Below, piece after piece: positions 22,666-62,349 of a stretch of 64,000 nt of DNA. The DNA is from Candidatus Zambryskiibacteriota bacterium (GTDB lineage: Bacteria > Patescibacteriota > Minisyncoccia > Phycocordibacterales > WO2-35-19), in assembly GCA_016932555.1 (NCBI GenBank), contig JAFGCQ010000004.1, positions 990 through 64,989 on the forward strand, read 5' to 3'. The first letter of the stretch is position 1. Each line of letters starts with the position of its first letter. Below the pieces are notes generated by a model, which saw nothing but the letters and a program-made list of their open reading frames with translations, was not told the origin of the DNA and did not search any database. The position numbers and the translations under genes are program-made.

Positions 22666-23202
22666 TTATTTCTTCTTAAATGGGAAGCCGAGAGTTTTGA
22701 GGAATTCTAGAGTGTCAGATTTATTTTTGAGATTAGTGACAATAGTAACGGCAAAGCCGAAAACATCCTTGAGATCTTCGTCGGAGGTTTCGGGGAAAAC
22801 AGTATGCTCTTTGACAGCTAAAGTGTAATTGCCCATTTCATCAACAGCCCCGGAGAAAATACCCCTGAAATCTTTGGTTCGCGGCAAAGCTATATTTAAA
22901 AGACGATCCAAAAAACTCCACATCCTTTCACCCCGAAGAGTTACTTGGACGCCAACAATATCTCCTTCCCTAGTTTTGAAAGAAGCAATTGATTTTTTAG
23001 CACCTTTTTTAATCGGTCTCTGGCCAGTAATTTTAGAGAGTCGATCTATGACCACTTCTAAACGGTTTTTATCTTTCGATGAACCGGTGCCGGAGCTTAT
23101 AACTACTTTTTCAATCTTTGGTGCTTGCATAATATTCTTTAACTTGAATGTATCTTTCAAGTTTTTGTATGATTCTTTTGTTCTATCTTTCATCATTTTC
23201 AT
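22666..23202 (-). CDS. rplE: 50S ribosomal protein L5
   Basis: Family-typical sequence; follows L24. Confidence 0.9.
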   Translation of the reverse strand: MKMMKDRTKESYKNLKDTFKLKNIMQAPKIEKVVISSGTGSSKDKNRLEVVIDRLSKITGQRPIKKGAKKSIASFKTREGDIVGVQVTLRGERMWSFLDRLLNIALPRTKDFRGIFSGAVDEMGNYTLAVKEHTVFPETSDEDLKDVFGFAVTIVTNLKNKSDTLEFLKTLGFPFKKK

Positions 23203-23211
23203 GTCAGCTTT

Positions 23212-23433
23212 TTAATTTTTAATTCTTTTAACATTTGATACATGTATCGGTGCGGCTTGATCAACTATTTTACCTTTTTCGTTACTCTTTTTTCTGCGTT
23301 GATGAACTTTTTTAATATTTATTCCTTCAATTAAAACCATGTCTGATTTAGGAAAGGCGCGTAAAATTATACCAGATTTACCTTTATCCTTACCAGTTAA
23401 TACTTTTACTTTATCTCCTTTTTTTACATGCAT
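23212..23433 (-). CDS. rplX: 50S ribosomal protein L24
   Basis: [19 protein letters not shown] motif. Confidence 0.85.
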
Positions 23434-23437
23434 ACTC

Positions 23438-23537
23438 TCGAATATTACGAATAAGATCGAATAATACGAATCCTATTTTTGCTATTAATTTGATTGTTCT
23501 TTATTTGTAGCATTCGATTAAATTTGTGGTTATTCGC
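23438..23537 (-). repeat. 100-nt intergenic element, copy A (between rplN and rplX)
   Basis: 99/100 identical to 33287-33386. Contains four CGAAT motifs about 9-10 nt apart. Confidence 0.9.
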
Positions 23538-23914
23538 TAGATGACTTCTGAAGCTAATGAAATAATGGCCTGATGGCCGGCCTCAGCAATTTCTCGAGGA
23601 ATAGGACCAAAGATTCTTCCTGCTCTTGGAGTAATTTCACCCTTCTTCTTATCTACTACAACTAATGCATTTTCATCAAATCGGATATAAGAACCATCTT
23701 TTCTGCGTAGTGGTGTCTTTTGGCGAATTACCATTCCTAATAGTACTGCTTTTTTCTTTATTTCTTTGCGAGGTTCAGCTTTTTGAACTGAAAATTTAAC
23801 CAGCTCGCCAATTCTAGCATAGCGCTTTTTAGAAGAACCTAATATTTTAAAAACCCGGCCGATTTTAGCACCTGAATTATCTGCTATTTTAACTATAGAA
23901 TTTGGCTGAATCAT
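23537..23914 (-). CDS. rplN: 50S ribosomal protein L14
   Basis: MIQ...ADNSGAK start; full-length match to the family. Confidence 0.9.
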   Translation of the reverse strand: MIQPNSIVKIADNSGAKIGRVFKILGSSKKRYARIGELVKFSVQKAEPRKEIKKKAVLLGMVIRQKTPLRRKDGSYIRFDENALVVVDKKKGEITPRAGRIFGPIPREIAEAGHQAIISLASEVI

Positions 23915-23940
23915 AATTTATGTTTTTACGATTTTACTAT

Positions 23941-24231
23941 TTACTTAATTATTATAAAATGCTTATCTTTTGATATTGGTTTAACTTCCTTGATTTCAAC
24001 TTTATCACCTATTTTCTTAGTATTACCAATATCATGGGTTTTATATTTTTTATTTACTTTGTAATATTTTCTGTATTTTTTATGTTTAACAAATCTTATT
24101 ACTGAAACCGTGCAAGTATCTTTCATTTTGTCTGATACTACAATACCCTTCAAGATTCTCGATCTGATTCCATTTTTCTTCTCTTCTGTTTTTTCTATTT
24201 TTTTATCCATAATTCTTAATTCATTATTCAT
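23941..24231 (-). CDS. rpsQ: 30S ribosomal protein S17 (N-terminal extension)
   Basis: LKGIVVSDKMKDT...V..HKKY core. Confidence 0.85.
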   Translation of the reverse strand: MNNELRIMDKKIEKTEEKKNGIRSRILKGIVVSDKMKDTCTVSVIRFVKHKKYRKYYKVNKKYKTHDIGNTKKIGDKVEIKEVKPISKDKHFIIIK

Positions 24232-24406
24232 TATTTATCTTCGTCAAAATTCTAGCAATTTCTTTTTTCAGATTTTTCTGCCTTTTAACATCCTTACTTT
24301 TACTACCAGCTATACCAAATCTTATATCACGCAAGGCTAGCTTTTTTTCATCAAGCTCTTTTTGTAAATCTTGTGTGATATTTTTTTTTGGTTTTTCTTT
24401 TTTCAT
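24224..24406 (-). CDS. rpmC: 50S ribosomal protein L29
   Basis: 60 aa; helical Lys-rich; positioned between L16 and S17. Confidence 0.8.
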   Translation of the reverse strand: MKKEKPKKNITQDLQKELDEKKLALRDIRFGIAGSKSKDVKRQKNLKKEIARILTKINNE

Positions 24407-24417
24407 AATCGTCTTTT

Positions 24418-24434
24418 ATTCGTATTATTCGATC
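24418..24434 (+). repeat. 17-nt fragment of the CGAAT element, inverted orientation (rplP-rpmC spacer)
   Basis: ATTCGTATTATTCGATC is the exact reverse complement of 23455-23471. Confidence 0.7.
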
Positions 24435-24444
24435 ATATTCACAG

Positions 24445-24864
24445 TTATTGGCGAGTAACTATTTTAGTTTTTACTGGCATTTTACAGCCACCTTTACGCA
24501 AAGATTCTCGGGCAATAATTTCCGAAGTGCTTTCAGCTTCAAAAAGAACTTGACCCGGTAAAATTCTTACTTGGTAACCTTCAATATCTCCTTTACCTTT
24601 ACCCATTTTCACTTCCGCCGGCTTTTTAGTAAAAGGCATATCTGGGAAAATACGGACCCAAACTCGGCCAGTTTTACCAAGATTTCGGCTAATAATTTTT
24701 CTAGCAGCTTCTATTTGATTAGAAGTAACTCGACCGGCAGAAATAGCTTTAAGACCATGTGAACCGAAAGAAATTTCTATCCCGCGAGTAGCTGGGCTTA
24801 TCTTGTTTGGATTTTTGCGCATTATATGCCATTTCCGATATTTAACTTTTTTAGGGAATAACAT
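24445..24864 (-). CDS. rplP: 50S ribosomal protein L16
   Basis: MLFPKKVKYRK start; family-typical sequence. Confidence 0.9.
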   Translation of the reverse strand: MLFPKKVKYRKWHIMRKNPNKISPATRGIEISFGSHGLKAISAGRVTSNQIEAARKIISRNLGKTGRVWVRIFPDMPFTKKPAEVKMGKGKGDIEGYQVRILPGQVLFEAESTSEIIARESLRKGGCKMPVKTKIVTRQ

Positions 24865-24895
24865 GATTTTAGGTTAATTGGTCAATTAAAATAAT

Positions 24896-25558
24896 TTATC
24901 CTTGCTTAGTAAAAATCTCACCCTTATAAATCCAAACCTTGATGCCAACTTTGCCGAGAGGCAATTTTGCTTCATAAAAAGCGTAATCAATGTCTGCCCG
25001 CAAAGTTTGCAAAGGAATTTGCCCAACCTTTTTACTCTCTACTCTAGCCATATTAGATCCTCCTAAGATACCAGAAAGAGTAATTTTCACACCTTTAACA
25101 TCACGGTTAGCAAAAGCTTTATCAATAATTGTTTTCATCACCCTACGAAAAGGCATCCTTTTTTCTAATCCTTCAGCTACCATCTGGGCAGCAATCATTG
25201 CACTAGACTCGGGTGACTTAACTTCTTTAATATCAATTTTTAATTCTTCGTTTAGATTAAATTTTTTGCGTTTTATAAAAACTAATATATCGCTTCTAAG
25301 TTTCTCCAACCCTTCACCATTGCGTCCAATAATAAAGCCGGGTCTAGATGATTCAATAATTATTCTAAAAGTTTTCACGCTTCTTTCTATTTCAATAGAA
25401 TTAACAAAAGATCCTTTCAAGCGTTTATATAAATATTCGTAAATTAAAACATCGCTTTTTAAATTTTCTTTATATTTATCTTTTACATCAAACCAGCGAG
25501 ACTTCCAATCACGAATGATGCCCAATCTATGAGAATATGGATGTACGGTGTGAGTCAT
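24896..25558 (-). CDS. rpsC: 30S ribosomal protein S3
   Basis: KH domain and S3 C-terminal domain sequence. Confidence 0.9.
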   Translation of the reverse strand: MTHTVHPYSHRLGIIRDWKSRWFDVKDKYKENLKSDVLIYEYLYKRLKGSFVNSIEIERSVKTFRIIIESSRPGFIIGRNGEGLEKLRSDILVFIKRKKFNLNEELKIDIKEVKSPESSAMIAAQMVAEGLEKRMPFRRVMKTIIDKAFANRDVKGVKITLSGILGGSNMARVESKKVGQIPLQTLRADIDYAFYEAKLPLGKVGIKVWIYKGEIFTKQG

Positions 25559-25565
25559 AATAATA

Positions 25566-25913
25566 TTAGCTTTTAGTTTTTAATTCATCTGATAAAACAA
25601 GCTTAATTTTTGAGGTTCTTTTTTTGATGGGATGAGCAGCTCCATGAGCTACTGGGCGGCGCCTAAAAAGAGTTTGGCCTTTATTTACAGTGATCGATTT
25701 AATTTTCAAATTATCGGTTTCAATACCAATGTTTTTAGCATTAGCTAGAGCCGAATTTAAAAGCTTTTGCAAGGGGCCAGTGGTTTTTTTGGTAATAAAA
25801 TTTAGTCGATTTCTGGCTTCCTTTACTGACTTGCCTCGAATAGCATCTGCTACTAAACGGACTTTCCGAGGAGATTGGCGATAATTATTAAGCTGTGCTG
25901 CAACTTCAACCAT
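25566..25913 (-). CDS. rplV: 50S ribosomal protein L22
   Basis: SPRKVRLVADAIRGK motif. Confidence 0.9.
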   Translation of the reverse strand: MVEVAAQLNNYRQSPRKVRLVADAIRGKSVKEARNRLNFITKKTTGPLQKLLNSALANAKNIGIETDNLKIKSITVNKGQTLFRRRPVAHGAAHPIKKRTSKIKLVLSDELKTKS

Positions 25914-25918
25914 ATTTT

Positions 25919-26266
25919 TTATTTACCGCTAGTGTTTTCTGCAGCAGTTTTAGCAGCTTTAGCTTGATTTATTTCTTCTTCTTTCTTTTTAGCTTCAAGT
26001 TCTTTTTGCATCTTACCACCATGTTTGATGAATTTGCGGGTGGGAGAAAATTCGCCCAAGCGGTGTCCGACCATATCTTCACTGACTAAAACTTCGATGT
26101 GATCTTTCCCATTATGAACTCCAAAAGTAAAACCGACCATTTCTGGAGAAATTACACAAGATCTAGACCATGTTTTAATAACCTCGGTATCTTCCGGTTT
26201 TTTCCCTTCAATTTTTTTAAGAACCCTTACATCTACGTAAGGTCCTTTTTTTAGCGATCGAGACAT
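25919..26266 (-). CDS. rpsS: 30S ribosomal protein S19 (Lys/Glu-rich C-terminal extension)
   Basis: [11 protein letters not shown] start at the internal ATG (ORF track extends to 26332). Confidence 0.9.
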
Positions 26267-26343: not shown

Positions 26344-28023
26344 CTACATCTTATCAGGAACTTTGATAGCAAGGAGATTGAGACCAAATTTTAGAATGTT
26401 ATGAGTAGCTCGAGTGAGAGCGATTTTATAAGGCGAAGATAGGTCTTTTTCGTTTACTATCCTTTCTTTACCGTAAAAACTGTTAAAAGCTCCTGCTAAT
26501 TCGGTGAGATAAGTCACAATGTAATGTGGCGCATACTCCTCACCCGCCCTTTTGACTACTTCTGGAAATCGATAAATATATCTCTCAAGTTCAGTAATCT
26601 CAAAATCTTCCGGCCTTTTAGTTTTGGAATTTAAGAATTTGAATATTGTTTTGAAATTTGGATTTTGAAATTTGGATTTTTCAAGCACGGAGTTGGCTCG
26701 AACCGCTGTGTATTGTAAATACGGCCCTGAATCACCTTCAAAAGAAATGGATTTGTCAAAATCAAAAATAATGTCCCCGCCAATGGCTTGTTTCAGTATT
26801 GAATATTTAATAGCGCCAATTGCCACTATTTCGGAAATTTGCTTCTTTTCTTCTGGAGAAAGCTCTCTGTCCTTTAATTTTTCTTCCACTTTCATCTTTA
26901 TTTGATTAATTAAACTTTCAGCCATAATCACTTCTCCTGTCCTCGAAGACATCTTGCCGCCAGGTAAGCGCAACATACCGTGAGAGAGATGTAGCAGCTT
27001 GCCTTTAAGCTCAGGGAAAACTTCACCAATTGCTACCTCAACAACATCAAAAAAAGAATCTTGTTCATTGGCAGTAATGGTGATTGATTTATCATATATG
27101 TATTTCTCCTTTTTGAGCTTAGCGAGCCCTATTTCTTTAGCTTCGTAAGTGGGAATACCATCTGTATTTACAAAAACTCGAGTATGGGTCTTGGGCTTGA
27201 AATTTTCGCCGCGAAAAATTACCGCTCCATTCGATTTTTCAAATATTTTTTTTACCCCGTCATCTACATTAGCAGATTCTTCGGGGGACATGTTTTTTTC
27301 TACAATTTTTTTGCCCACTTGCCCAGCCTCACTTTCATAAAAATGAAAATCAAATTTACTACCTAACTGCTCATAAATTTTTTCAAAAGAATTCAGAGAG
27401 AACTTTTTACCCTCTTCATATAATTTATTTATTTTCGGATCAGATTTTTCGTAAATTTTTTTATTTATTTCTTTTATTTCCTCTTTATGATTCTCGTAAT
27501 TTATGCCGCCATAAACATAAGCTCCGCTCCAATCCAGCTCTGGTTTTTGAATTTTGCCCCAAATAGTCTTGGCCACATGAAGTCCCATGTCGCCGTGATA
27601 ACTTACTGGTATAGTTTTTGCTCCACTGACCTCTAAAATGCGTGTTATTGATTCACCAATAGCATTGTTCATTAAATGGCCGATATGAAATTCTTTGAAC
27701 GGATTAGGTGCTGTGTGGTCAATTAAAATTTTTCCTTTGCCCGATGTAGCTTTAGCGAATTTAGGTCCTTCTTTATTTATTTCGTTAACAGAGTCAGTAA
27801 AAAATTCTTTAGACAAATAAAAATTTATAAAGCCACCGACCCATTTCACTTTCTCTATTTCCGGAATTTTATGGTAAGAGAGCGGTTTACCGATTTCCTC
27901 AGCTTTATCTCCTGCAAAAAATGAAAAATCGCCATTTTGTAAATCCTTGGGATGCATTAGGATGATCTCTTCCATTTTAAGTTCTTTTTTAATCCAATCC
28001 TTTATCTTTTTTTGAATTTCCAT
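26344..28023 (-). CDS. argS: Arginyl-tRNA synthetase
   Basis: Class I HIGH motif (FHIGHLMN); DALR-type C-terminal domain ending ...PDKM. Confidence 0.85.
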
Positions 28024-28145
28024 ACTTTTATATTACCAATTTTTGATTCTAAAATCTTGTCTCATTATAGTTGACTAATTGTTATTAATATGGAGAATAC
28101 TATACGGAATAGATATTTGAAATAGGATATTTGAAAGGAGAAAAA

Positions 28146-29099
28146 ATGACAATAATCAAATATAAACCTTATCAAGAAAGATTGCTGGATTGGCAATATC
28201 AAAATTTGCTTAGATTTATTCGATGTTCATCTGAAACTTATCTTGCTAAAAATCCATATCAGGATAGAGGTCGTTGGACAAATTTAGAAACACCAAGAAT
28301 GGTTTTTAAATTTGAAAACGGTTTTCCTATAATTACTGAAAGAAAAATTTCTTTCTGGAAAACTGCCATTACAGAAATTATTCTTTTTTTAAACGGCGCC
28401 CGCAAATTTGAGGATATGTTAAAAGCCGGGTGCGGTTGGTGGGCTGAATGGACCTCATTGGAAAAATGTAAAGATTTGGGTCTTCAAGTTGGAGATTTGG
28501 GTCCGGGATCATATGGTCCAATTCTTCATAATTTACCAAATTTCGTATGGGATCAGCAACCATATGGTTGTTCAAGTTATAAAAATCAACCTTTCAATCA
28601 AATAGAACATCTGATTCAATCTCTCAAAGATGGGCCTGGACTTAATACCCATGTGATATCTACTTGGTATCCGCCGTTTGATATGCAACACAGCAAATTA
28701 CAGCGCCAAGTTTCGGTAGCGCCCTGCCATGGCACCAAAATGCAATTTACAGTAATCAATGGCAAAAAGCTTGTCTATACCATGACTCAGCGCTCTGGTG
28801 ATGTGCCGGTTGGTGTTGTCTCAAATATCATTCAGCATGCAGCACTTTGTATTATGGTAGCTCATGTCTGTAGATACGAGCCTTACAAATACATTCATGT
28901 CGTTGATGACGCTCAGATATACGAAAATCAAATAGAAAAAGTTGATGAGCTTTTAGACAGAATACCCTTTCGTTTACCCACTCTTCAACTCACCAAAGAG
29001 GGCCAAGAAATCAAAAATATTTTTGATTTCAAGGCCGATCACTTTGAACTTTCTGATTATGAATGTCATCCAGCTATGAAAATTCCAACTACACTTTAG
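28146..29099 (+). CDS. thyA: Thymidylate synthase family protein (divergent ThyA-like)
   Basis: VAPCH catalytic Cys, QRSGD, SNI motifs. AGGAG SD before the ATG at 28146 (ORF track TTG at 28131). Confidence 0.7.
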   Translation: MTIIKYKPYQERLLDWQYQNLLRFIRCSSETYLAKNPYQDRGRWTNLETPRMVFKFENGFPIITERKISFWKTAITEIILFLNGARKFEDMLKAGCGWWAEWTSLEKCKDLGLQVGDLGPGSYGPILHNLPNFVWDQQPYGCSSYKNQPFNQIEHLIQSLKDGPGLNTHVISTWYPPFDMQHSKLQRQVSVAPCHGTKMQFTVINGKKLVYTMTQRSGDVPVGVVSNIIQHAALCIMVAHVCRYEPYKYIHVVDDAQIYENQIEKVDELLDRIPFRLPTLQLTKEGQEIKNIFDFKADHFELSDYECHPAMKIPTTL

Positions 29100-29110
29100 A
29101 AAGGAAAGAT

Positions 29111-29692
29111 ATGTTATTGGGAAAAACTATCTCAATTATCTTTACCGCTCCCGTTTATGCTAAAAATAATCGTCTGATTATTGGCAATGGTAAATTTATT
29201 CCTTGGTTAGGTAAAGTTTCTTCAGATTTAAAGAGATTTAAAAAACTTACCTTAAATCAAACTGTGATTATGGGACGCAAAACCTGGGACTCTTTGGAAC
29301 ACAAACCTTTGCCAGATAGACAAAACATAATTCTTAGCAGAAACCCAGATATAATCTTCGAACCAAGCGATATTCCACTCAAAGATTGGACTTTTCTAGA
29401 AATAGGAGTGACCAAATCTTTTGAAAGTGCTATTTTAATGGCAAAATCTCAAACAGTATGGATAATAGGCGGTGCTGAAATTTACAAATTAGCTTTGCCT
29501 TATGTTGATTATATTCACAGAACTCTTATTTCTGGAAGATTTGATGGAGACATCTTCTTTCCAGAATATAACCTAAATGAATGGAGAAAAGATAAAGAAA
29601 AATCTATCTTTTTAAAAGCCAAAGAATTAGAAAATACGATGGATGAATATGATTCTTTTTATGAAGTTTTTGAAAGAAAGGAGGTGATATGA
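29111..29692 (+). CDS. folA: Dihydrofolate reductase
   Basis: IPW...DLKRFKKLT...VIMGRKTWDS...IIGG motifs. Internal ATG with AGGAAAG upstream. Confidence 0.8.
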   Translation: MLLGKTISIIFTAPVYAKNNRLIIGNGKFIPWLGKVSSDLKRFKKLTLNQTVIMGRKTWDSLEHKPLPDRQNIILSRNPDIIFEPSDIPLKDWTFLEIGVTKSFESAILMAKSQTVWIIGGAEIYKLALPYVDYIHRTLISGRFDGDIFFPEYNLNEWRKDKEKSIFLKAKELENTMDEYDSFYEVFERKEVI

Positions 29693-30174
29693 CAGAAAAA
29701 AAAATAATGGAAATGATTCATGCCAGAGTCGATGCCCAGCGTAAAAAAATGGAAGAATGCATTCGTCTTGGTATATGTCCACTTTGTTGGGAAAATTTAG
29801 CAAAATGGCATAATGCTCCAATATTAAGATATGGAGATTTTTGGGCCATTACAGCTAATGATCATCCTTATGAAGGTACGAAAATTCATCTCTTGGCGAT
29901 TTATAAGCATCATATAAATTCAATTGACCAAGTAGAAGTAGCTGCAGAGAATGAACTTTTCAGACTTTTTTCTCTGTTCTGTAAAAAAAATAAAATTGTT
30001 GGTGCTTCGATATTAATGCGTACAGGTGAAATGAACTACACTGGAGCAACTTTGGCACATCTTCATGCCCATTTTATTTCTGGGGTTTCTAGAGAAGAAG
30101 TAGAGAAATTTTCAGAAATCAAATATCCAAATTCATTTATCATATCGGTTCTTGGTTACAAGATTCCGAAATGA
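29689..30174 (+). CDS. HIT-family (histidine triad) protein
   Basis: HLHAHFI triad; ATGA overlap with the folA stop. Confidence 0.7.
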   Translation: MTEKKIMEMIHARVDAQRKKMEECIRLGICPLCWENLAKWHNAPILRYGDFWAITANDHPYEGTKIHLLAIYKHHINSIDQVEVAAENELFRLFSLFCKKNKIVGASILMRTGEMNYTGATLAHLHAHFISGVSREEVEKFSEIKYPNSFIISVLGYKIPK

Positions 30175-30180
30175 AAATTA

Positions 30181-30220
30181 CCCCGCACTTTTTATAAAAG
30201 TGCGGGGCTTTTTATTTTTT
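30181..30220 (+). terminator. Terminator between convergent genes
   Basis: 12-bp stem CCCCGCACTTTT/AAAAGTGCGGGG followed by CTTTTTATTTTTT. Confidence 0.7.
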
Positions 30221-31060
30221 CACTTTTAATATTTTGACTTCAGCAGCTTTTAAAGTCTCGAAGCCTTTAAGCACACTGTAGCCCTGATTAAAGATTAATC
30301 TTTTGATTTGGCATTTAGCTAACATACGAGCACAATCAGCACAAGGAAAATCTGTGACGTAAACTGTTGCACCCTTAAGAGAAATACCCTCGCGAGCACA
30401 GGTTGCAATGATTCCTTTTTCGGCGTGAAGTGATAGATAAATTTCAGATCCAGCTATATCGCCTGCATCAAAATTTATCCGCGGATCACTAAAAATTGCG
30501 GTTTCGTATTCGTTTGGATAATGCTTATTGTAGGCACAGGCAATCATCTTCCCGTCACGAAAAGCCAGAGCTCCAATTTGTCGCCACCAATCTGGTGATT
30601 TTTTACCGAGGTTAAAAGCTGCTATCATACGAAGAGTGTCGATTTCTTCGTAAGTTATCTCCATATCCGGCATAATTGGTTCTTGCCTTTTGACTGCAGT
30701 CATATCCCACCTAGCCCAGATCGGCTCAAATTTCACCTCACAATCACAATTTTTGAGATATTTCTCGGCAAAAACATGAGAAATATCCTCATCCGGCATT
30801 AAACAATCCTCTTCTATAGATATAGAATCTTCCAGAAAAAAAATTTTGACGGAGTTTTTTATAGACGGATTTCTTTTAAGACCGGAAATTATAGTGTAGA
30901 CATCAACTGCAGGCAAAGCGCAGATATTCCTTTTTAATCTGGGAATAAGAGCTTCTGCCAAATCTTGAGATATAAGATGCAAGTGAAAGGGCTCGTGGTC
31001 CTTAAGCCAAAGAAGATATTGCCGATTTATAACCGGCATATAGGCAATGAGATTATTCAT
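30212..31060 (-). CDS. Fusion protein: unknown N-terminal domain (about 130 aa) plus dCMP/cytidine deaminase domain
   Basis: HAE...PCADCA zinc-binding deaminase motifs in the C-terminal half. Confidence 0.7.
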   Translation of the reverse strand: MNNLIAYMPVINRQYLLWLKDHEPFHLHLISQDLAEALIPRLKRNICALPAVDVYTIISGLKRNPSIKNSVKIFFLEDSISIEEDCLMPDEDISHVFAEKYLKNCDCEVKFEPIWARWDMTAVKRQEPIMPDMEITYEEIDTLRMIAAFNLGKKSPDWWRQIGALAFRDGKMIACAYNKHYPNEYETAIFSDPRINFDAGDIAGSEIYLSLHAEKGIIATCAREGISLKGATVYVTDFPCADCARMLAKCQIKRLIFNQGYSVLKGFETLKAAEVKILKVKK

Positions 31061-31646: not shown

Positions 31647-31806
31647 AACTCCTCCTTTCAAATCAAAGATTATTTCAAAATAACTCCTATCCAGTTTTCT
31701 ATCATAAACACAATTAAAAGACAAACCCCGATTGCAAATCTGCAATCGGAGTTATTTTAGAGTCTTGTTACTACCCTAAGTTCTTTAAGGTGGTGAACTG
31801 GGTTGT

Positions 31807-32240: not shown

Positions 32241-32258
32241 TAATTTATTTTTGTTTTT

Positions 32259-53030: not shown

Positions 53031-53095
53031 TTGAAAAAATCATCAACATTTTGGACGATCGTCAAATTTGTCAATGAAAAATTATATGATAAGCT

Positions 53096-54535: not shown

Positions 54536-54956
54536 CTTTATAATTTTCTAACTTGAATCTTTTTAACTCTTTTATATAAGCGTAAAAACACATAACAGTT
54601 GCTCCTAATACACCCATAATAAGATCCAGAACGGTATCAAAAGGATATTTAGGGCCAAGCATTACAGCTTCTCCGATTACTAATTCGTAAATTTCCCACA
54701 TTAAAGCTACAGCTACTAAACCCAAGATAGAAATTTTTAAAAATTCTATTAAATTTCTTTTTTTTGGTTTAAAAAGCTCCGTAAAGAAATATAACAAAAG
54801 AGAAAGAGCGCCTAAAGCAGTTCCAGCTAAAAAATGAACTAAGCTATCAAATTCCCAAACTGTCCAATAGAGATCATAATGATAAGCTATCTGATTTAAA
54901 ATCCCCACCAGAGCAAATAAAACAAACATTTCCCTAAAAAGCGGTTTATTTATCAT
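54516..54956 (-). CDS. Membrane protein (four TM helices)
   Basis: Hydrophobic ORF. Confidence 0.4.
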   Translation of the reverse strand: MINKPLFREMFVLFALVGILNQIAYHYDLYWTVWEFDSLVHFLAGTALGALSLLLYFFTELFKPKKRNLIEFLKISILGLVAVALMWEIYELVIGEAVMLGPKYPFDTVLDLIMGVLGATVMCFYAYIKELKRFKLENYKVEEKYE

Positions 54957-55194: not shown

Positions 55195-55803
55195 CTATTC
55201 CAGTATTCCATCCAAGTTTACATCATACAAAATCTGTTCGGCAATTAAACGATAATTTACAAGCTCATTTTCCTTAAACCAAAGTTTTATCTCTTTATTT
55301 GCCTCCTCAGTCGAACCAGAAGCGTGTATCAAGTTGCGAACTGCCCGACCATCAGTGTCAGACACTATATATGAATCCAAAACAAAGTCTCCACGAATAG
55401 TGCCCACATCTGAAGTTCGGGGTTCTGTTCCACCAGTTACTTTACGCACCACTTCCACCGCGTGCGCCCCTTGCCAAACTAGCGCTACCACCGGACCTGA
55501 AGTCATATATTTAATTAAAGTTTCCAAAACTCTGTTTCCAGCTTCTATTGGGTTTTTTAAAGGGGGCTCTATGCCCTTTTTTTGATAGCTAGCGATAGCT
55601 TTTTCACCAGCTTTTTTTTGCCATTCCGGATCAACCGTGTAGTGTTTTCTTACAAAACTTGCATCAGGAACAACCATTTTTATCGCAATCATTTTTAAAC
55701 CCATCTTTTCATACCTTTTAATAATTTCGCCAATAAGGGATCTTTGTACACCATCGGGCTTTATAATTACTAGCGTTCTCTCTTTACTTGGATGATTATT
55801 CAT
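55195..55803 (-). CDS. ndk: Nucleoside diphosphate kinase (long form)
   Basis: ERTLVIIKPDGVQR start and NLIHAS active-site region. Confidence 0.8.
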   Translation of the reverse strand: MNNHPSKERTLVIIKPDGVQRSLIGEIIKRYEKMGLKMIAIKMVVPDASFVRKHYTVDPEWQKKAGEKAIASYQKKGIEPPLKNPIEAGNRVLETLIKYMTSGPVVALVWQGAHAVEVVRKVTGGTEPRTSDVGTIRGDFVLDSYIVSDTDGRAVRNLIHASGSTEEANKEIKLWFKENELVNYRLIAEQILYDVNLDGILE

Positions 55804-55838
55804 GATTCTAATGACTCTAAAATTTTTAATTTTTAAAA

Positions 55839-56633
55839 CTATCTTGTCAAAACTTCTATTCCATTCTTTGTAACCGCTACTGTATGCTCAAAATGAGCAG
55901 AAAGAGATTTATCACGAGTAATAAAGGTATAGCCATCAGAGAGACGCTTGATTTCACGACTACCTAAAGAAAACATCGGCTCAATAGCAATAACTAGCCC
56001 TTCTCTAAGTTCCGGCCCTTCGCCCCTCTCGGCTCGATTGGGTACATACGGTTCTTCATGGACACTATAACCTACCCCGTGACCTGACAAGCCTTCTATT
56101 ATGCCCAAATTGTATTTCATAGCCACTTGCATAATAGCCGCCCCAATATCACCTATATGGCCACCGATTTGCATAGTGTTAATGCCTTTTTCTAAAGCTT
56201 CATAAGTCGCTCTAATGAGAGTCGCGGCATCATCGCTAATTTTACCAACTGGTACAGTAATGGCTGCGTCAGTAATCATGGGTCTTACTTGTGGTGAACC
56301 AGTCAAACTATAAGTAAAACCCATATCCAAAGAAACGATATCTCCTTCAAATAAAATCCGATTGCCGTCATGATTTGGAATACCGTGAACAATTTCTTCA
56401 TTTATGGAAACACAAAGCGAGGCCGGGTAGGGTTTTGAAGCATCATCAGATTGATAGCCAAAAAAAGAGCCGACGCCACCCGCTTCATCGATAAGTTTTT
56501 CGGCGTAATCATTAAGCTCTTGAGTTTTAACCCCTGCTTTAACTTTTTGGGCCACTTTTTTTAAAATCTTCGCGTGAATCTTACCTCCTTCCCGCATCAC
56601 TGCTATTTCTTCTTCTGTTTTGTATTTGATCAT
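55839..56633 (-). CDS. map: Methionine aminopeptidase type I
   Basis: Family-typical metal-ligand segments (D..D..H..E..E). Confidence 0.9.
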   Translation of the reverse strand: MIKYKTEEEIAVMREGGKIHAKILKKVAQKVKAGVKTQELNDYAEKLIDEAGGVGSFFGYQSDDASKPYPASLCVSINEEIVHGIPNHDGNRILFEGDIVSLDMGFTYSLTGSPQVRPMITDAAITVPVGKISDDAATLIRATYEALEKGINTMQIGGHIGDIGAAIMQVAMKYNLGIIEGLSGHGVGYSVHEEPYVPNRAERGEGPELREGLVIAIEPMFSLGSREIKRLSDGYTFITRDKSLSAHFEHTVAVTKNGIEVLTR

Positions 56634-57220
56634 AATCCAATTTTGCTTATTATCTCTTTATGAACTTCATCGATTGTTTGTTCGCCGTTTATTTCTATAA
56701 ATTTATAATAGTGATTGTTTTTGAGATATTCCACAGTTGGTAAAACTTTTTCTTTAAACCAATCTAGCCTGTTTTTTATATCTTCTTCATTGTCATCAGT
56801 CCTGCCTCTATCTTTCATTAGCTTGGTAACCCATTCATTTGAAGCATTTATCGAAATAACCATTGGGTTCTCTCTTTCATAAAATTTTAAAGCATCACTC
56901 AGTATATACGCTTCACCAAGTTTACGAGGTGTACCATCAAAGAAAATAGTCACATCTGGAGAAAGCTCTTCAACCAAGCGCTTAGTCCAAATGTAGATAG
57001 GCATAAACTCAGGAACTAATTCACCCTGATCTAAAATTTTTTTGACTCTTTGGGATGTGAAAGATTGGGTTTGGGTAAGTTTTCTAAATCCTTCCCCAGT
57101 TTCTATATAGATAATTTTTTGCTCAGGATATTTTTTCTTAATTTCTTCCTGTAGGAGCTTAGCTTGGGTACCCTTACCGCAACCAGATGGCCCTAAAAAT
57201 ATGAAAGTTTGCGGTTGCAT
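56630..57220 (-). CDS. adk: Adenylate kinase
   Basis: P-loop GPSGCGKGTQ. ATG at 57220 preferred over the ORF-track start at 57247. Confidence 0.85.
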   Translation of the reverse strand: MQPQTFIFLGPSGCGKGTQAKLLQEEIKKKYPEQKIIYIETGEGFRKLTQTQSFTSQRVKKILDQGELVPEFMPIYIWTKRLVEELSPDVTIFFDGTPRKLGEAYILSDALKFYERENPMVISINASNEWVTKLMKDRGRTDDNEEDIKNRLDWFKEKVLPTVEYLKNNHYYKFIEINGEQTIDEVHKEIISKIGL

Positions 57221-57240
57221 GAAATAAGTATAACATAAAT

Positions 57241-57285
57241 CCCCCACTCGGGACTAGTCCTCGACCTCCCCTTGATCAGGGGAGG
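57241..57285 (-). repeat. Family B-related GC-rich element (hairpin CCTCCCCT-TGATC-AGGGGAGG)
   Basis: Shares both ends with 57657-57702; direct repeat flanking the DUF559 gene. Confidence 0.6.
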
Positions 57286-57305
57286 CAATGCGCGATAATT
57301 AGGAA

Positions 57306-57656
57306 ATGACAAGAGTTCATAATATCCGCAAACTTTCAGATCGCAGGAAAGAATTACGAAAAAACCAAACAAAAACCGAAGAAAAACTCTGGTGGTATTT
57401 GAAAGATAAGAGGCTGGGAATTAAATTCAGAAGACAGCACAGTATAGGAGGATATATTTTAGATTTTATATGCAAAGAAAAGAAATTGATTATAGAAATT
57501 GATGGTAGAGTACATTTGAAAAAAGATAATAAAGAATACGATAAAGTTAGAGACAAATATTTTGAAGAGTTAAATTATAAAGTTCTGAGATTTACGAATG
57601 ATGAGGTTGAAAATGGGGTTAAAGAGATTATTGATGTTATAAAGCGGTATCTTTAA
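57306..57656 (+). CDS. DUF559 (Vsr-like) endonuclease-domain protein
   Basis: TEEKLWWYLK...FRRQHSIGGYILDF...IEIDG..H...D..RD..L...GY.VLRF pattern. Confidence 0.8.
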   Translation: MTRVHNIRKLSDRRKELRKNQTKTEEKLWWYLKDKRLGIKFRRQHSIGGYILDFICKEKKLIIEIDGRVHLKKDNKEYDKVRDKYFEELNYKVLRFTNDEVENGVKEIIDVIKRYL

Positions 57657-57702
57657 CCCCCACCCCTCAATTCGTGTAGCCCTTCTCTTGATCAGGGGAG
57701 GG
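57657..57702 (-). repeat. Family B GC-rich element, inverted copy
   Basis: Its reverse complement aligns along the whole length of 58407-58451 (about 80 percent by eye). Confidence 0.75.
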
Positions 57703-57724
57703 AAAACCAAAATCATACAAAAAG

Positions 57725-57748
57725 AAAACCGCCATTCAGCGGTTTTCG
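57725..57748. terminator. Bidirectional terminator between convergent genes
   Basis: AAAACCGC-CATTCA-GCGGTTTT with T-runs on both strands. Confidence 0.6.
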
Positions 57749-57770
57749 GTTGAAAATCATTGAAGAGCGA

Positions 57771-58322
57771 TTATATCAAAATCCTCCCATTATACTCATG
57801 GAACCCGATTTCTCCACTGGTAGCCGTGAAAAAAATATGCTCCATTCCAGCAAAATTTTCGAATCCGCCCCCGAGAAAAATAGTGTTTTCATACTTAAGA
57901 AGGTTTTTATCATAGTTTCCTACACGAGTATCATTATAAAAACCGTGTGTAGCTAAACCTCGTCCACCATGGAATTCACGTTGTTTGTAGGCGTAATTAA
58001 GCGCCATTTTCAAAAAACTGATCACTTCCTTAGGATAACATCCAGAATAAGACATCCACCACACGGCCATCCATCTTCCTCTGGGTCTGAACCTATAAAA
58101 GATAGTGGTTGTACCGGCGGAAAAATCTGAAAGCGGTGTCACACAATAGTGATCTACCACTTTGTAGTTACCGGATACAAAAGTGATTCTTTTGTATCCG
58201 CTAGATTCTATGACTTTAACAGAATTCTTTTTGTTTCCAGCATATCCGTCAAGCATAGCATCGAAGAATACTTTTTCTGCTTTTTGAATGATTTTCTTTC
58301 TCTGTTTGGACTCTAGTTCCAC
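57771..58322 (-). CDS. Hypothetical protein, DUF5680-like (tentative)
   Basis: Pattern ...AMLDGYAGN...W.MSYSG....EVISFLK.AL...FHGGRG recalls DUF5680. From memory only. Confidence 0.4.
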   Translation of the reverse strand: MELESKQRKKIIQKAEKVFFDAMLDGYAGNKKNSVKVIESSGYKRITFVSGNYKVVDHYCVTPLSDFSAGTTTIFYRFRPRGRWMAVWWMSYSGCYPKEVISFLKMALNYAYKQREFHGGRGLATHGFYNDTRVGNYDKNLLKYENTIFLGGGFENFAGMEHIFFTATSGEIGFHEYNGRILI

Positions 58323-58406
58323 TGTTGGCTCCTTTCACCCATTAGGTCTGACTCAGGTTATACAACAATATAAAAATTAAAGCAAGAATAAAAAATACCG
58401 CGCGTT

Positions 58407-58451
58407 CCCTCCCCCGTCCAGGGGGAGGGCTACACGAAGTGAGGGGTGGGG
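58407..58451 (+). repeat. Family B GC-rich element abutting the secY stop codon
   Basis: CCCTCCCC-CGTCC-AGGGGGAGGG hairpin plus CTACACGAAGTGAGGGGTGGGG tail. Confidence 0.75.
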
Positions 58452-58452
58452 A

Positions 58453-59724
58453 TTAATATTCTCTTGCAGAGATTTGAGCATCAACTTTTTTAACGAGATC
58501 AAGAACCACTGAAACTACGATAAGAAGTCCTGTACCGCCTATAGCCACTGCGCTGATACCAGTAGCCGCCCTTACTATTAAAGGCAAAACAGCAATTAAT
58601 CCCAAGAAAATAGCGCCAATCATGGTTAAACGGGAAAGGATTTTGGCTATATATGAGGAAGTCGAGGAACCGGGTCGAACTCCCGGAATAAAAGCACCGC
58701 CTCTCTGTAAATTTTTGGAAAGATTCTCCGGATCAAAAGTAATAGCTGTGTAGAAATAAGTAAAAACAAAAACTAATAAGAAGTAGGCAATGCCATAAAA
58801 AATCTGGTTAGAAAGCAAAGCAAGTAGAAATTCAGAAATCTTTTGGATTATAGTATTGTCTACATTAGCTAAAAAGCGGATTATCATTTGAGGAAAAAGT
58901 AATATGGAAAGAGCAAAAATTATAGGAATCACCCCAGCTTGATTAACTCTTAAAGGTAAATAAGTGGAAACTCCACCATACATTTTATTACCTCTAACTT
59001 GTTTAGCGTAAGTTATCGGTATGGGTCTTTCTGCTTCAGTAATAACTACTACACCCCAAATCACTGCTATGGCAGCCGCCAGAAAGCCAATATACATCGG
59101 CAATTGAGATGGATCAAAAGCAAATAAAAGCTGGCTAGTCGCACTGGGTAAAATAGCAACAATGCCGGCAAAAATGATAAGCGAGACTCCGTTACCAATA
59201 CCAAATTCAGATACTAACTCACCAAGCCACATAAGAAGCATTGAACCGGCAGCAATTACTATAAGATTTGTTAGCAATTCAAAACCAGCAAGTTTACTTA
59301 AAACATTCTGATTTTGAAGAAGAATAATAAAAGCATAACCTTGCATTAAAGCTAGAGGCACAGTCAAAAATCTTGAATATTGAGAAAATTTTCTGCGTCC
59401 TAATTCACCCTCTTCTTGATACATAGCCTTGAGTTTAGGAAACATAACAGTCATAAGCTGCATAATAATAGAAGCGGTAATATATGGCGACACACCGAGC
59501 ATAATAATTGAAAGATTAGACAAACCACCACCCGAAAAGATATTTAAAAGTCCAAAGAAATCATTATCAGACATAAACTGCTCTAATTTAAAAGTATCAA
59601 TACCGGGAATTGGGATAGAGGCCATCAAACGGAAGAGAGCCAACATTACAAGGGTAAAAATTATTCTCTTTCTTAAATTTTTATCCCCTAAGACTAATTT
59701 TATTTTGTGAATAAAATTTTGCAT
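58453..59724 (-). CDS. secY: Preprotein translocase subunit SecY
   Basis: Ten-TM SecY sequence; follows rplO. Confidence 0.95.
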   Translation of the reverse strand: MQNFIHKIKLVLGDKNLRKRIIFTLVMLALFRLMASIPIPGIDTFKLEQFMSDNDFFGLLNIFSGGGLSNLSIIMLGVSPYITASIIMQLMTVMFPKLKAMYQEEGELGRRKFSQYSRFLTVPLALMQGYAFIILLQNQNVLSKLAGFELLTNLIVIAAGSMLLMWLGELVSEFGIGNGVSLIIFAGIVAILPSATSQLLFAFDPSQLPMYIGFLAAAIAVIWGVVVITEAERPIPITYAKQVRGNKMYGGVSTYLPLRVNQAGVIPIIFALSILLFPQMIIRFLANVDNTIIQKISEFLLALLSNQIFYGIAYFLLVFVFTYFYTAITFDPENLSKNLQRGGAFIPGVRPGSSTSSYIAKILSRLTMIGAIFLGLIAVLPLIVRAATGISAVAIGGTGLLIVVSVVLDLVKKVDAQISAREY

Positions 59725-59729
59725 TCAAT

Positions 59730-60149
59730 TTATTTGCTTAAATTTTTGACCTTTTTTGAAGTTTCAATATTTTCAAAAATAAAGTTTTTCTTTATTTCTT
59801 TATCAGCTAAAATTTTTGCTTTCGGAATTCGGCCGTTCTTTTTATTTATAATACCTTTTTCTAACAAAACTTGATGATTTATCTTATCTCCTGCAGAAAA
59901 ATTTTTATCTAAAATGGAAAGCTTTATTGGCATAGCTTTTTCAAGTCGAGACTTAAGAAAATTTTTACCTCGACCTCTTAATTTTGGTAATTTTTTAATT
60001 ATATCACGCATTTCTGGTCTTTTTTTCCTGCCGGCCCTGGCATTTTGGCCTTTGGTGCCGCGACCAGAAGTCTTGCCGCGTTTACCCCCCCGACCAATTT
60101 TTTTGGCTTTCCGATTAGTTCTATTTTTTTTTAAATTATGGAATTGCAT
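59730..60149 (-). CDS. rplO: 50S ribosomal protein L15
   Basis: GRGGKRGKTSGRGTKGQ motif. Confidence 0.85.
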   Translation of the reverse strand: MQFHNLKKNRTNRKAKKIGRGGKRGKTSGRGTKGQNARAGRKKRPEMRDIIKKLPKLRGRGKNFLKSRLEKAMPIKLSILDKNFSAGDKINHQVLLEKGIINKKNGRIPKAKILADKEIKKNFIFENIETSKKVKNLSK

Positions 60150-60177
60150 TGCACGAATATTACTAATAAGATTAAGT

Positions 60178-60789
60178 CTAAGAATTAATTTTTACTTTTT
60201 CTTTATTTTTCTCTTTCAGTTGTAAAAGAGCTTTTACCGCAGCTCTGGCAATATTAAGCTTGTTTTTTGATCTGGAAAGAATTTTTGAAGAAACTTCTTT
60301 TATCCCAGCCAGTTCGAGAACTACTCTCACTGCACTGCCAGCAATCACTCCTTTCCCAGGAGCAGGATTAAGAAATATTTCAGCACTAGCGTATTTGGTA
60401 TTTACCGGATGAGCAATAGAGCCTTTGTCAGTTAAAGATACTTTAATTATATGTTTTTTTGCGTCTCGGATAGCTTTTTCTATGGCAATAGGAGTATCAC
60501 CAGCTTTACCAATACCCACACCCACTCTGCCTTTTCTATCGCCAATTACTACCACAATACTAAAACTGAACCTGCGACCACCGGCAACTACTCTGGTTAC
60601 TCTTCTAATGTCTATTATTTTATTATCAAACTCTTGTTTAACCCTTGCCGGACGTCGAGAAGGTCGGCGTTCATTTTTTTGTCGAAATTTAGTTTTATTT
60701 TCATTTTTAAAATTGTTGTTTATTTTAGTTTTTTTATCAGTTTTTTCAACTTCTTTTCTATCTTCTTTTTTTATTTCTTTTTCTTCCAT
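60178..60789 (-). CDS. rpsE: 30S ribosomal protein S5 with Lys/Glu-rich N-terminal extension of about 55 aa
   Basis: RVTRVVAGGRRFSF...GVGIGKA core. Confidence 0.9.
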   Translation of the reverse strand: MEEKEIKKEDRKEVEKTDKKTKINNNFKNENKTKFRQKNERRPSRRPARVKQEFDNKIIDIRRVTRVVAGGRRFSFSIVVVIGDRKGRVGVGIGKAGDTPIAIEKAIRDAKKHIIKVSLTDKGSIAHPVNTKYASAEIFLNPAPGKGVIAGSAVRVVLELAGIKEVSSKILSRSKNKLNIARAAVKALLQLKEKNKEKVKINS

Positions 60790-60800
60790 AATAATTTTAA

Positions 60801-61148
60801 TTAAAACTCTAAACCAGCCTTCCTGGCACCCTGGGCTAAAGCAGCAATTCTACCAGTATAAAGATAGCCCTCTCTATCAAATACTACTTTAGTGATTTTT
60901 TTGGTTTTAGCTTGTTTAGCGATTTCTGCCCCAACTTCACCTGCTTTATCTAAAACCGATTTACTTTTAATGTTTTTGCTAGAAGCAAAAGCTAAACTTA
61001 CACCTTTTTCATCATCAATAAGTTGAGCAGAAATATATTTATTCGATCTAAAAACAGAGAGTCTGGGTCTTTCTGCTACACCAAAAATTTTAGCTTTTAT
61101 ACGCTTTTTTCTCCTGTTTCTTTTTTCTGTTTTTAATTTAGTATTCAT
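60801..61148 (-). CDS. rplR: 50S ribosomal protein L18
   Basis: [20 protein letters not shown] motif. Confidence 0.9.
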
Positions 61149-61153
61149 AACTT

Positions 61154-61705
61154 TTAAACTGTTTTCTTACCTTGTTTTCTTCTTATAATTTCATTCTCAT
61201 AACGAAAACCCTTGCCTTTATAAGGTTCCGGTTTTTTTAAGCTTCTTACTTTGGCAGTAAAAGCTCCGACTAACTCTTTATCAAAACCAAATATAGTAAT
61301 GAGATTCTTTTCAGCTTTTACTTCCAAGCCGTCAGGGATTAGAACTTCTACCGGATGGGAAAAACCCAGAGAAAGAATCAACTTATTGCCTGCCTGCGCA
61401 GGCAGGCCATTAACTTGGGATTTAAAACCTACGCCTTCTAATACTAATTTTTTTTCAAAACCATCATTAACTCCTTTTATCATGTTTTTTATATGAGAGG
61501 CATAAGTACCCCATAGAGCCTTAGTTTGATTATTTTCTTTGGGTATAGAAAGATTGATATGATTTTCTTCAATTTTAATTACTACATCATCACGAAATTT
61601 TCTTTCCAATAAACCTTTTGGACCTTTCACAAAAAAAACGTTATCTTTTAAGGAGACTTCTGTACCTGGTAGTATCTTTATTTCTTTTTTACCTATTCTT
61701 GACAT
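61154..61705 (-). CDS. rplF: 50S ribosomal protein L6
   Basis: MSRIGKK start; two L6 repeats; carries the insert GLPAQAG before [12 protein letters not shown]. Confidence 0.9.
61388..61407. repeat. 20-nt perfect palindrome GCCTGCCTGCGCAGGCAGGC, in-frame in rplF
   Basis: Self-complementary; same core as 1432-1449. Confidence 0.9.
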
Positions 61706-61731
61706 AATTATTTATAGTGAGCGTAGTCGAA

Positions 61732-62124
61732 CTACCAAATATTAAACAAATGTTCTCCTCCTAAATTTTCTTTTTTAGCATCAACATCGGTTCTAATACC
61801 TTCAGGAGTCGAAAAAATCGACATGCCAAAACCTTTCTTAAAAATTTTTATGTCCTTAGCTTTAGTATATAAGCGTCTTGATGGCTTAGAAATTCTTTTA
61901 ACTTCAGAGATTACCGGTTTTCCATCCTCTTGATATAATAATTCTACCTCCAGAGATTTTGTGCTGCCGCGACTTTTTTGACTTACATTACCAAGATAAT
62001 TTTTAACAGACAAAAGTTCAGCAATAGCAAGCTTTAAATTGGAAAAAGGCACGGAAACTTTTTCCTTTTTCATAATACTTGCATTCTTCACTCTTATTAT
62101 AAAATCTCCTATTGGATCGTTCAT
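61732..62124 (-). CDS. rpsH: 30S ribosomal protein S8
   Basis: MNDPIGDFIIRVKNA start. Confidence 0.9.
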   Translation of the reverse strand: MNDPIGDFIIRVKNASIMKKEKVSVPFSNLKLAIAELLSVKNYLGNVSQKSRGSTKSLEVELLYQEDGKPVISEVKRISKPSRRLYTKAKDIKIFKKGFGMSIFSTPEGIRTDVDAKKENLGGEHLFNIW

Positions 62125-62163
62125 ATATTTTCTAGGCAGTATCCTGAGCGTTAGCTGAAGGAC

Positions 62164-62349
62164 TTACCAAGAAGCTTTTTTAACTCCTGGAATTCTTCCT
62201 TCGTTAGCAAGTTCTCGAAAACAAATCCGACACAAATCAAAATCTCTCATATAACCTCTACTGCGACCACATTTAAAACAGCGTCTTACAGCTCTGGTTT
62301 TAAATTTAGGCTTTTTTTGAGCCCTTGCTATAACTGAAGTTTTTGCCAT
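62164..62349 (-). CDS. rpsN: 30S ribosomal protein S14, type Z (zinc-binding, 61 aa)
   Basis: [10 protein letters not shown]...CRICFRE Cys motif; ends KASW. Confidence 0.9.

Follow-up and report, generated by a model that had tools for sequence, protein, structure and literature searches.

The question raised by this locus is why a ribosomal-protein gene cluster that is normally contiguous, the S10-spc cluster, lies in three separate blocks in the genome of Candidatus Zambryskiibacteriota bacterium (GenBank assembly GCA_016932555.1). The stretch analyzed, hereafter the window, comprises 64,000 nucleotides (nt) of contig JAFGCQ010000004.1, a candidate phyla radiation (CPR) sequence. An earlier inspection of the letters alone, here called the sequence-only reading, described the blocks as cyclically permuted with respect to the canonical order, associated the rearrangement with mobile or repeat elements and advised that misassembly be excluded. 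Our analysis indicates that the three blocks look like three predicted transcription units that are already present in genomes where the cluster is contiguous, and that their separation was inherited from an ancestor rather than acquired recently by this genome.

The gene map was built from the open reading frame (ORF) listing, Pfam scans of about 85 window proteins and Protein Data Bank (PDB) searches (Table 1). Every gene named in the sequence-only reading was identified in this way, including L15, for which a weak Pfam signal was accompanied by a PDB match to uL15 (E = 4.9e-10), and all three blocks lie on the minus strand, where they are transcribed in the order block A, block B, block C with blocks A and B ~10 kb apart and blocks B and C ~14 kb apart. 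The core gene set from S10 to L15/secY is complete, and its order inside each segment is canonical. L30 is absent between S5 and L15, which is usual for CPR bacteria. The flanking genes also correspond to the initial description: S19 is preceded by argS, tuf by a pilin-like gene and S14 by a reverse transcriptase (RT) gene with bAvd, and a tRNA-Leu follows L19. The end of L2 (40825) and the start of S19 (26266) are ~14.5 kb apart and L19 comes 72 nt after L2, while L5 is followed by an acylphosphatase gene (acyP) instead of S14. S19 actually begins with the ATG at 26266 and not at 26332, where its ORF opens, which leaves an argS-S19 spacer of 77 nt. The separation of the blocks is therefore firmly established, whereas the term "cyclically permuted" says little beyond it, because A-B-C and B-C-A are the same cyclic order on a circular chromosome. 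That the cluster is normally contiguous was borne out by 28 of 31 non-CPR control loci (the other three were cut before S19 or lacked S14), in which the L2-S19 and L5-S14 gaps are mostly 13-20 nt and reach up to 185 nt in a few cases.

Table 1. Positions of the ribosomal-protein blocks, their predicted signals, neighboring features and independently assembled contigs in the window.
Feature	Position	Strand	Description
Type IV pilus locus	9508-20992		Complete; downstream of block C
Logan contig L146	20641-23493		L24-L5, acyP-PEBP; spans L5/acyP
Block C	22666-26266	-	S19, L22, S3, L16, L29, S17, L14, L24, L5 (Pfam); predicted operon 2
L5	22666-23202	-	Block C
107-nt direct repeat, copy 1	23431-23537		L14/L24 spacer
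ATTCG repeat	23440-23475		5' of L24
Logan contig L057	24396-33342		nusG...argS, S19...L16; spans argS/S19
S19	25919-26266	-	Block C
S19 leader hairpin	26294-26282	-	CCCGCC-a-GGCGGG then TTTAAT
Predicted S19 promoter	26332-26305	-	TTGACT-16-TAGTAT, TG before -10
argS	26344-28023	-	Pfam tRNA-synt_1d and DALR_1; gene upstream of S19
B-C interval	28131-40205		thyA, DHFR, HIT, dCMP deaminase, cytidylyltransferase, L11, nusG, SIMPL, folD, DedA/VTT, response regulator and histidine kinase, tRNA-His, PduO-type adenosyltransferase, EF-Tu-domain-2-like small protein, tRNA-Leu
nusG-L11	31807-33282		
107-nt direct repeat, copy 2	33280-33386		Leader directly upstream of nusG
ATTCG repeat	33285-33320		5' of nusG
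79-aa ORF	39842-40081		EF-Tu-domain-2-like
tRNA-Leu	40122-40205		Downstream of L19
Intrinsic-terminator-like hairpin	40252-40269	-	GATCACCCC-ga-GGGGTGATT and T run, directly after L19; would end operon 1
Block B	40273-45131	-	tuf, S10, L3, L4, L23, L2, L19 (Pfam); predicted operon 1
L19	40273-40752	-	Appended at end of block B
ATTCG repeat	40760-40790		5' of L19
L2	40825-41673	-	Block B
ATTCG repeat	43362-43390		5' of L3
tuf	43929-45131	-	Block B
Predicted tuf promoter	45244-45271	-	TTGACT-16-TAATAT, TG before -10; in 143-nt pilin-tuf spacer
Pilin-like gene	45275-45847		Upstream of tuf
A-B interval	45275-54956		Pilin-like gene, two genes of unknown function, nusA(+), tig(+), clpP(+), RNase Y(+), beta-CASP RNase J-like gene, one further unknown
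Block A	55195-62349	-	S14, S8, L6, L18, S5, L15, secY, insert, adk, map, ndk (Pfam); predicted operon 3
ndk	55195-55803	-	Block A
secY-adk insert	57248-58456		
DUF559 endonuclease-like gene	57306-57656	+	In secY-adk insert
52-nt inverted repeats	57653-57704 and 58405-58456		Flank DUF5680-like gene
DUF5680-like gene	57771-58322	-	In secY-adk insert
secY	58453-59724	-	Block A
Logan contig L139	60015-64000 and beyond		bAvd-RT, S14-S8...S5; spans RT/S14
S14	62164-62349	-	Block A
S14 leader hairpin	62383-62366	-	GTCCGTC-ggct-GACGGAC
Predicted S14 promoter	-35 62423-62418; -10 62400-62395	-	TTGATT, 17-nt spacer, TAGTTT
Retroelement cassette	62420-64000		RT 62420-63424 (-), bAvd 63425-63808 (+) (Pfam); cut by window end; also in Logan contig L139 (L139:1-500)

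To place the arrangement among related genomes, 74 window proteins were aligned by tblastn to 56 loci centered on L2 (one per species of GTDB), to 80 metagenome loci centered on L6 and to contigs carrying close S3 homologues (handles beginning with L denote individual loci or contigs), and this comparison showed that close relatives have the same neighborhoods for all three blocks. The best L2 matches among the GTDB species representatives were metagenome-assembled genomes (MAGs) of Parcubacteria/Paceibacterota at 73-82% identity, including Zambryskibacteria RIFCSPLOWO2_01_FULL_39_39, and the S3 and RT proteins of the window are 100% identical to NCBI proteins of a Candidatus Zambryskibacteria MAG. 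L2 is followed by L19 at a distance of 14-114 nt in 7/7 of the closest representatives (L001-L006, L008) and, where the locus is long enough, nusA(-)-unk276-tuf lies upstream and the PduO-type gene downstream. The gene series of the A-B interval recurs in L001, L004, L005, and L070, and that of the B-C interval in L005, L058, and L147. The last two, with S3 proteins 86% (L058, on at least 24 contigs) and 81% (L147) identical to that of the window, carry dCMP deaminase-HIT(-)-thyA/DHFR(-)-argS-S19...L5 without S14, followed by a phosphoribosyltransferase gene (PRTase(-))-pilM-pilN...pilB, in agreement with the window. In the closest L6 loci (L060, L062, L066-L070), S14 is the first ribosomal gene after 4-9 kb of non-ribosomal DNA, which includes recG (opposite strand) and ftsH in L060 and L070, and the order of block A is followed by ndk-unk146-rnj-rny(-)-clpP(-)-tig(-) as in the window (relatives L060-L070). 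Moreover, S14 (3.8 kb) and S3 (60.9 kb) share a strand on the 100-kb contig Ga0209542_10000443, which belongs to another species, and therefore block A precedes block C there too.

A neighbor-joining tree of concatenated tuf, S10, L3, L4, L23, and L2 (1271 columns, 200 bootstraps) placed the window and L001, L003-L006, and L008 in one group with 200/200 support, next to a canonical-order sister clade that was also recovered in 200/200 replicates. Separation by more than 10 kb is found in this derived lineage (window, L001-L006, L008, L058, L060-L070, L147), and the simplest reading of its distribution is that one set of events took place in the ancestor of the split clade. Since the split order is common to the clade and its carriers are monophyletic, the idea of a recent event in this genome had to be given up, and on this distribution the split is an old trait shared by the Zambryskibacteria-like clade. 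Four further loci lack S19 in the vicinity of L2, namely L012, which lies inside the canonical sister clade and has no S19 within 10 kb, and the Paceibacteria L021, L022, and L024, with no S19 within 3-10 kb (L021 and L022 are also devoid of tuf and S10 upstream of L3). These loci suggest breaks at the same junction independent of the Zambryskibacteria one, with independence supported by the tree for L012 alone.

The canonical-order relatives offer a view of the two junctions before separation. In these Paceibacteria the L2-S19 gap measures 63-4046 nt and the L5-S14 gap 111-2909 nt; the secY-adk gap is variable too, at 8-2408 nt. The 88 ORFs found in the junction gaps include ten pilin-like genes, toxin-antitoxin-type genes (four PemK/MazF, two HicA, two ParE, YafQ, and Phd), a GIY-YIG endonuclease, a TraG-like coupling protein, a complete diversity-generating retroelement (DGR, in L086) and a few housekeeping genes. 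L2/S19 and L5/S14 are thus repeatedly invaded by selfish or accessory genes in canonical relatives, and it is in this form that the proposed association with mobile elements survives; as the cause of the split it is not supported, given that no repeat, insertion sequence (IS) or transposase marks the breakpoints. In one canonical-order lineage (L074, L076, L087, L101, L102, L107, L111, L115, L125, L136), L5/S14 holds a two-gene module encoding a ~110-aa protein and a pilin-like protein. The pilin-like gene upstream of tuf in the window is the best homologue of the module pilin (E = 6e-26), and the neighboring 91-aa ORF of the window (pilin region 45275-46119) is unrelated to the ~110-aa partner. 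Two candidate correspondences were rejected. The 3-kb map-ndk gap of canonical relatives does not hold the missing alpha operon, being occupied in L102 by a single 919-aa ORF without a PDB homologue, and the dCMP deaminase, HIT, and dUTPase genes in the gaps of relatives are not orthologues of the B-C interval genes, as no BLASTP match was obtained at E < 1e-3.

The distribution of predicted promoters points to the same two junctions. A sigma-70-like motif, TTGA[CT]N-N15-18-TAnn[AT]T, was searched over a distance of 220 nt 5' of each gene in the cluster, against a background of 3% in random 133-nt windows. It was detected upstream of tuf in 21/26 canonical-order loci and 4/7 loci of the split clade, upstream of S19 in 34/35 and 3/3, and upstream of S14 in 44/53 and 7/7, respectively. 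Intermediate frequencies were obtained for L29 (14/34 and 0/3) and L3 (6/36 and 2/8); L19 had no motif in the split clade (0/8) and was uninformative in canonical-order loci (1 leader), and the remaining cluster genes had it in 0-5% of canonical-order loci and 0-14% of split-clade loci. Because a predicted promoter precedes tuf, S19, and S14 and almost no other gene, the blocks look like pre-existing operons that drifted apart.

The elements that accompany these motifs are also conserved. The 27 aligned S19 leaders share the -35 TTGAC without variation; conservation extends to the TG-extended -10, to a short GC hairpin and to a T-rich tract, and these elements are kept even where the L2-S19 spacing is only 63-118 nt. 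A long GC hairpin follows the predicted tuf promoter, and 5' of S14 the combination of TTGACT-17-TAGCTT and a CCCGAAAGGG hairpin is conserved in L060, L062, and L065-L068. In the window, the predicted -35 of S14 overlaps the TGA stop codon of the RT gene. The canonical-order Paceibacteria (L073-L137) carry a conserved leader of ~100 nt located ~120 nt upstream of rpsN (S14), e.g., L109:9260-9382, downstream of a TAGTAT -10 box, for which RNAalifold predicted 23 pairs, 15/23 with compensatory changes. This leader, absent from the window, is a candidate for a new ribosomal-protein leader. In Rfam searches the window gave tRNAs only, and the S19 and S14 leaders of L109 had no match.

Altogether, we consider it likely that Paceibacteria possess three promoter-delimited operons that were loosened by insertions and became fully disconnected in a Zambryskibacteria-like ancestor. 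In such a scenario, the S10-spc cluster of Paceibacteria would consist of tuf-S10-L3-L4-L23-L2, then S19...L5, then S14...secY-adk-map, each unit delimited by a promoter. The downstream units would each have their own predicted promoter and leader hairpin, so that insertion at two junctions could occur without silencing the downstream genes. The intermediate state would be represented by the canonical-order relatives, with 0.1-4 kb of accessory genes wedged at exactly L2/S19 and L5/S14. In the common ancestor of the Zambryskibacteria-like lineage the units would have been fully disconnected, with operon 3 moved to ~10 kb upstream of operon 1, ~14 kb between operons 1 and 2, and L19 added to the end of operon 1. 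Since ndk-unk146-rnj already lies downstream of block A in canonical relatives, the minimum change would be two events, one relocating tuf...L5 to ~10 kb downstream of block A and one widening L2/S19 to ~14 kb. The motifs and their distribution suggest that insertion came first and disconnection later.

Several points weigh against this interpretation. The promoters are motif predictions made from sequence, and promoter-like sites are no more numerous in the window than in shuffled sequence; what carries the argument is thus where the motif lies and how well it is conserved, and not how often it occurs. For S19, the occurrence of the motif in 30/37 leaders (130-nt windows) against the 3% background gives a binomial P of ~1e-39, a value that overstates independence, as the leader sequences are phylogenetically related. 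The -10 element of S14 in the window itself (TAGTTT) is weak, and the presence of the motif upstream of L29 and L3 in part of the canonical-order loci means that a picture of three operons may be too simple. The L29 motif of these loci lies in the 3' end of L16 and may represent an internal promoter or have arisen by chance within coding sequence. In addition, the rearrangement path (transposition, paired inversions, or duplication and loss) is not reconstructable with 20-kb loci, and the L2/L19 and pilin/tuf junctions of this genome were not found in an independent assembly.

A bolder version of the three-operon interpretation, which we put forward tentatively and hold to be somewhat short of an even chance, is that the class Paceibacteria has re-partitioned S10-spc into three autonomous operons (tuf-L2, S19-L5, and S14 onward), each with its own consensus promoter and an undescribed regulatory leader, that of S19 being a terminator-like hairpin between the promoter and the start codon and that of S14, in most canonical-order lineages, the ~100-nt structure with 15 covarying pairs. 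If these leaders were ribosomal-protein autoregulatory elements, the most conserved gene cluster of bacteria would be regulated through a new layout, and its breaking only at these two points would be accounted for.

Among the alternatives to pre-existing operons, the one that fares best is that the breaks are arbitrary, i.e., that gene order drifted in small, slow-growing CPR genomes once selection on it had relaxed, and that the promoter-like motifs arose later. The additional loci without S19 near L2 (L012, L021, L022, L024), the variation of the secY-adk gap and the predictive nature of the promoter calls are all compatible with this possibility. However, the motif is found 5' of S19 and S14 in 83-97% of the canonical relatives, even where the L2-S19 spacer is at its shortest, which indicates that it predates the separation, and insertions and breaks are concentrated at two or three junctions of more than 20. 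Arbitrary breakage is thus improbable.

Still less probable is a recent rearrangement of this particular genome driven by mobile or repeat elements, with the DGR, tRNA genes acting as integration sites, or repeats as the agents. The window does contain a DGR cassette abutting S14 (RVT_1, 1.1e-24; bAvd, 2e-16; Pfam), in which bAvd is divergent from RT with zero intergenic distance and, on the minus strand, an A-rich stretch resembling a template repeat (TR), from ~63830 to 64000 and beyond, is followed by a hairpin; no variable repeat (VR) of the DGR was detected in the window by a TR scan. The position of the RT stop codon within the predicted S14 -35, the tRNA-Leu and tRNA-His genes just downstream of block B and the selfish genes at these junctions in relatives could likewise be taken as signs of a mobile-element event. 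A complete DGR with the same layout as the window cassette occupies L5/S14 of the canonical-order locus L086 (L086:6687-9189), comprising a 202-aa target with VR (TR/VR of 125 nt at 88% identity), bAvd(-) and an RT that shares 49% identity with the window RT, which shows again that this site tolerates insertions. Against a recent event of this kind, the split occurs in at least seven species-level genomes forming the single clade described above. Neither a direct or inverted repeat of at least 25 nt nor an IS was found at 26.3, 40.3, 45.2, and 62.4 kb, and no transposase domain was detected among the window proteins scanned. The closest relatives with the same break carry recG at the S14 site and no DGR, and the nearest RT homologues (79% identity) occur at different sites in other Zambryskibacteria, where they follow VWA and AAA_5 genes and, in 2/6 contigs retrieved, adjoin a large serine recombinase. 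For these reasons, and judging from its distribution, the DGR next to S14 most likely arrived later and in a lineage-specific manner, inserting just 5' of an S14 promoter that already stood free.

The possibility that the contig is wrongly assembled was addressed with three independently assembled Logan contigs (run SRR13394437), which match the window along their entire length at 100% identity and span the argS/S19, RT/S14, and L5/acyP junctions (Table 1). In exact-sequence look-ups, only S3, RT, and PEBP of the window gave Logan contigs, while S19, L5, S14, L2, and tuf returned no record, and the L2/L19 and pilin/tuf junctions are backed solely by their conservation in at least four to seven other species. 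The window also contains a direct repeat of 107 nt (96% identity over 107 nt, 99% over 100 nt) that makes up the whole L14/L24 spacer and the leader directly upstream of nusG, includes a promoter-like site (TTAATA-16-TATCAT or TATTAT) and is missing from the L14/L24 spacer of close relatives (31-67 nt); two of the Logan contigs terminate within this repeat, across which L14 and L24 are neighbors, as in the canonical order and in relatives. A chimeric contig in which segments from one genome or more were fused where the blocks begin or end is hardly credible. In its favor are the short-read MAG source, the true branching of the assembly graph at this near-identical repeat and the lack of a match to the L2 and tuf proteins in any independent assembly. 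Against it, three junctions lie inside identical Logan contigs, each junction and its neighborhood recurs in other species from other studies, the best hits of all three blocks are in Zambryskibacteria, and a misjoin at the repeat would delete 9.8 kb and not make the observed order. The arrangement is not a misassembly, with three junctions verified directly and the remainder through conservation in relatives.

Other features of the window accompany the three blocks. Within block A, the secY-adk insert contains DUF5680-like and DUF559 endonuclease-like genes, the former flanked by 52-nt GC-rich inverted repeats (85% complementary) to which a CCTCCCCTGATCAAGGGGAGG palindrome near adk is related; a DUF5680 homologue occurs at another site in L068, and the insert looks like a small mobile or REP-like (repetitive extragenic palindrome) insertion. 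A short ATTCG motif with a period of 9-10 nt is repeated in 4-6 copies directly 5' of the starts of L24, nusG, L3, and L19, and also upstream of S19 in L014. In the B-C interval, nusG-L11 precedes a 111-aa ORF that matched nothing in Pfam or PDB, after which metabolic genes begin, and none of L1, L10, L7/L12, and rpoB comes after nusG-L11 in the window. A 79-aa ORF between tRNA-Leu and the PduO-type gene was considered as a remnant of tuf marking the break and discarded, given that it is intact, has its own promoter-like site and bears no meaningful similarity to the window tuf; its product resembles a stand-alone EF-Tu domain 2 (Pfam E = 5.6e-5; PDB EF-Tu E = 5e-4). Downstream of block C there is a complete type IV pilus locus (pilM, pilN, pilB, a response regulator, pilT, pilC, several pilins, and a prepilin peptidase), which occupies the same position in L058 and L147. 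GC skew gave no indication of an origin or terminus switch within the window.

Compared with the str-S10-spc-alpha supercluster of Escherichia coli and Bacillus subtilis, the window is similar in gene content, order within blocks and co-orientation of the blocks, and differs in the ~10 and ~14 kb that separate them, in the L19 gene after L2 and in the lack of L30. The predicted operon boundaries lie at L2/S19 and L5/S14, in contrast to the E. coli-type boundaries at S17/L14 and after secY/L36; rpsL-rpsG-fusA does not precede tuf, and ndk follows map in place of infA-rpmJ-rpsM. It has been reported for the same cluster in Gammaproteobacteria and Bacilli that genes first invade the inter-operon junction and that the operons separate fully later (PMC8046335). 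Both stages are seen here as well, with invasion in the sister lineages and separation in the split clade, although in another phylum and at other junctions, which are intra-operonic in E. coli terms, and, unlike the duplication-and-loss or transposon route proposed in that study, no duplicated genes or transposons were found. Disruption of this cluster is a known type of event, and the present case involves no new mechanism; novelty lies in the clade, in the junctions concerned and in the pattern of predicted promoters across the class, and no report of this split was found in the literature searched. The DGR of the window shares the RVT_1 RT, the divergent bAvd and an adenine-rich, TR-like stretch with other CPR DGRs, in a layout like that of L086 and L140-L145, and differs in that it only neighbors a ribosomal block, with its target gene and VR outside the window.

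The old, clade-wide separation has consequences for how these organisms are sampled. CPR phylogenies and many quality checks assume that 16 syntenic ribosomal proteins are found on one scaffold, whereas in the split clade these proteins are encoded in three blocks spread across 40-60 kb; in fragmented MAGs they will therefore be distributed among different contigs, and pipelines based on single scaffolds will under-sample or mis-score the genomes of this clade. Overall, the loci compared form a series of cluster break-up that goes from tight in other phyla to loosened in the sister lineages and separated in the split clade, and this series suggests that the positions of internal promoters, and not chance, decide where the most conserved gene cluster of bacteria can break.

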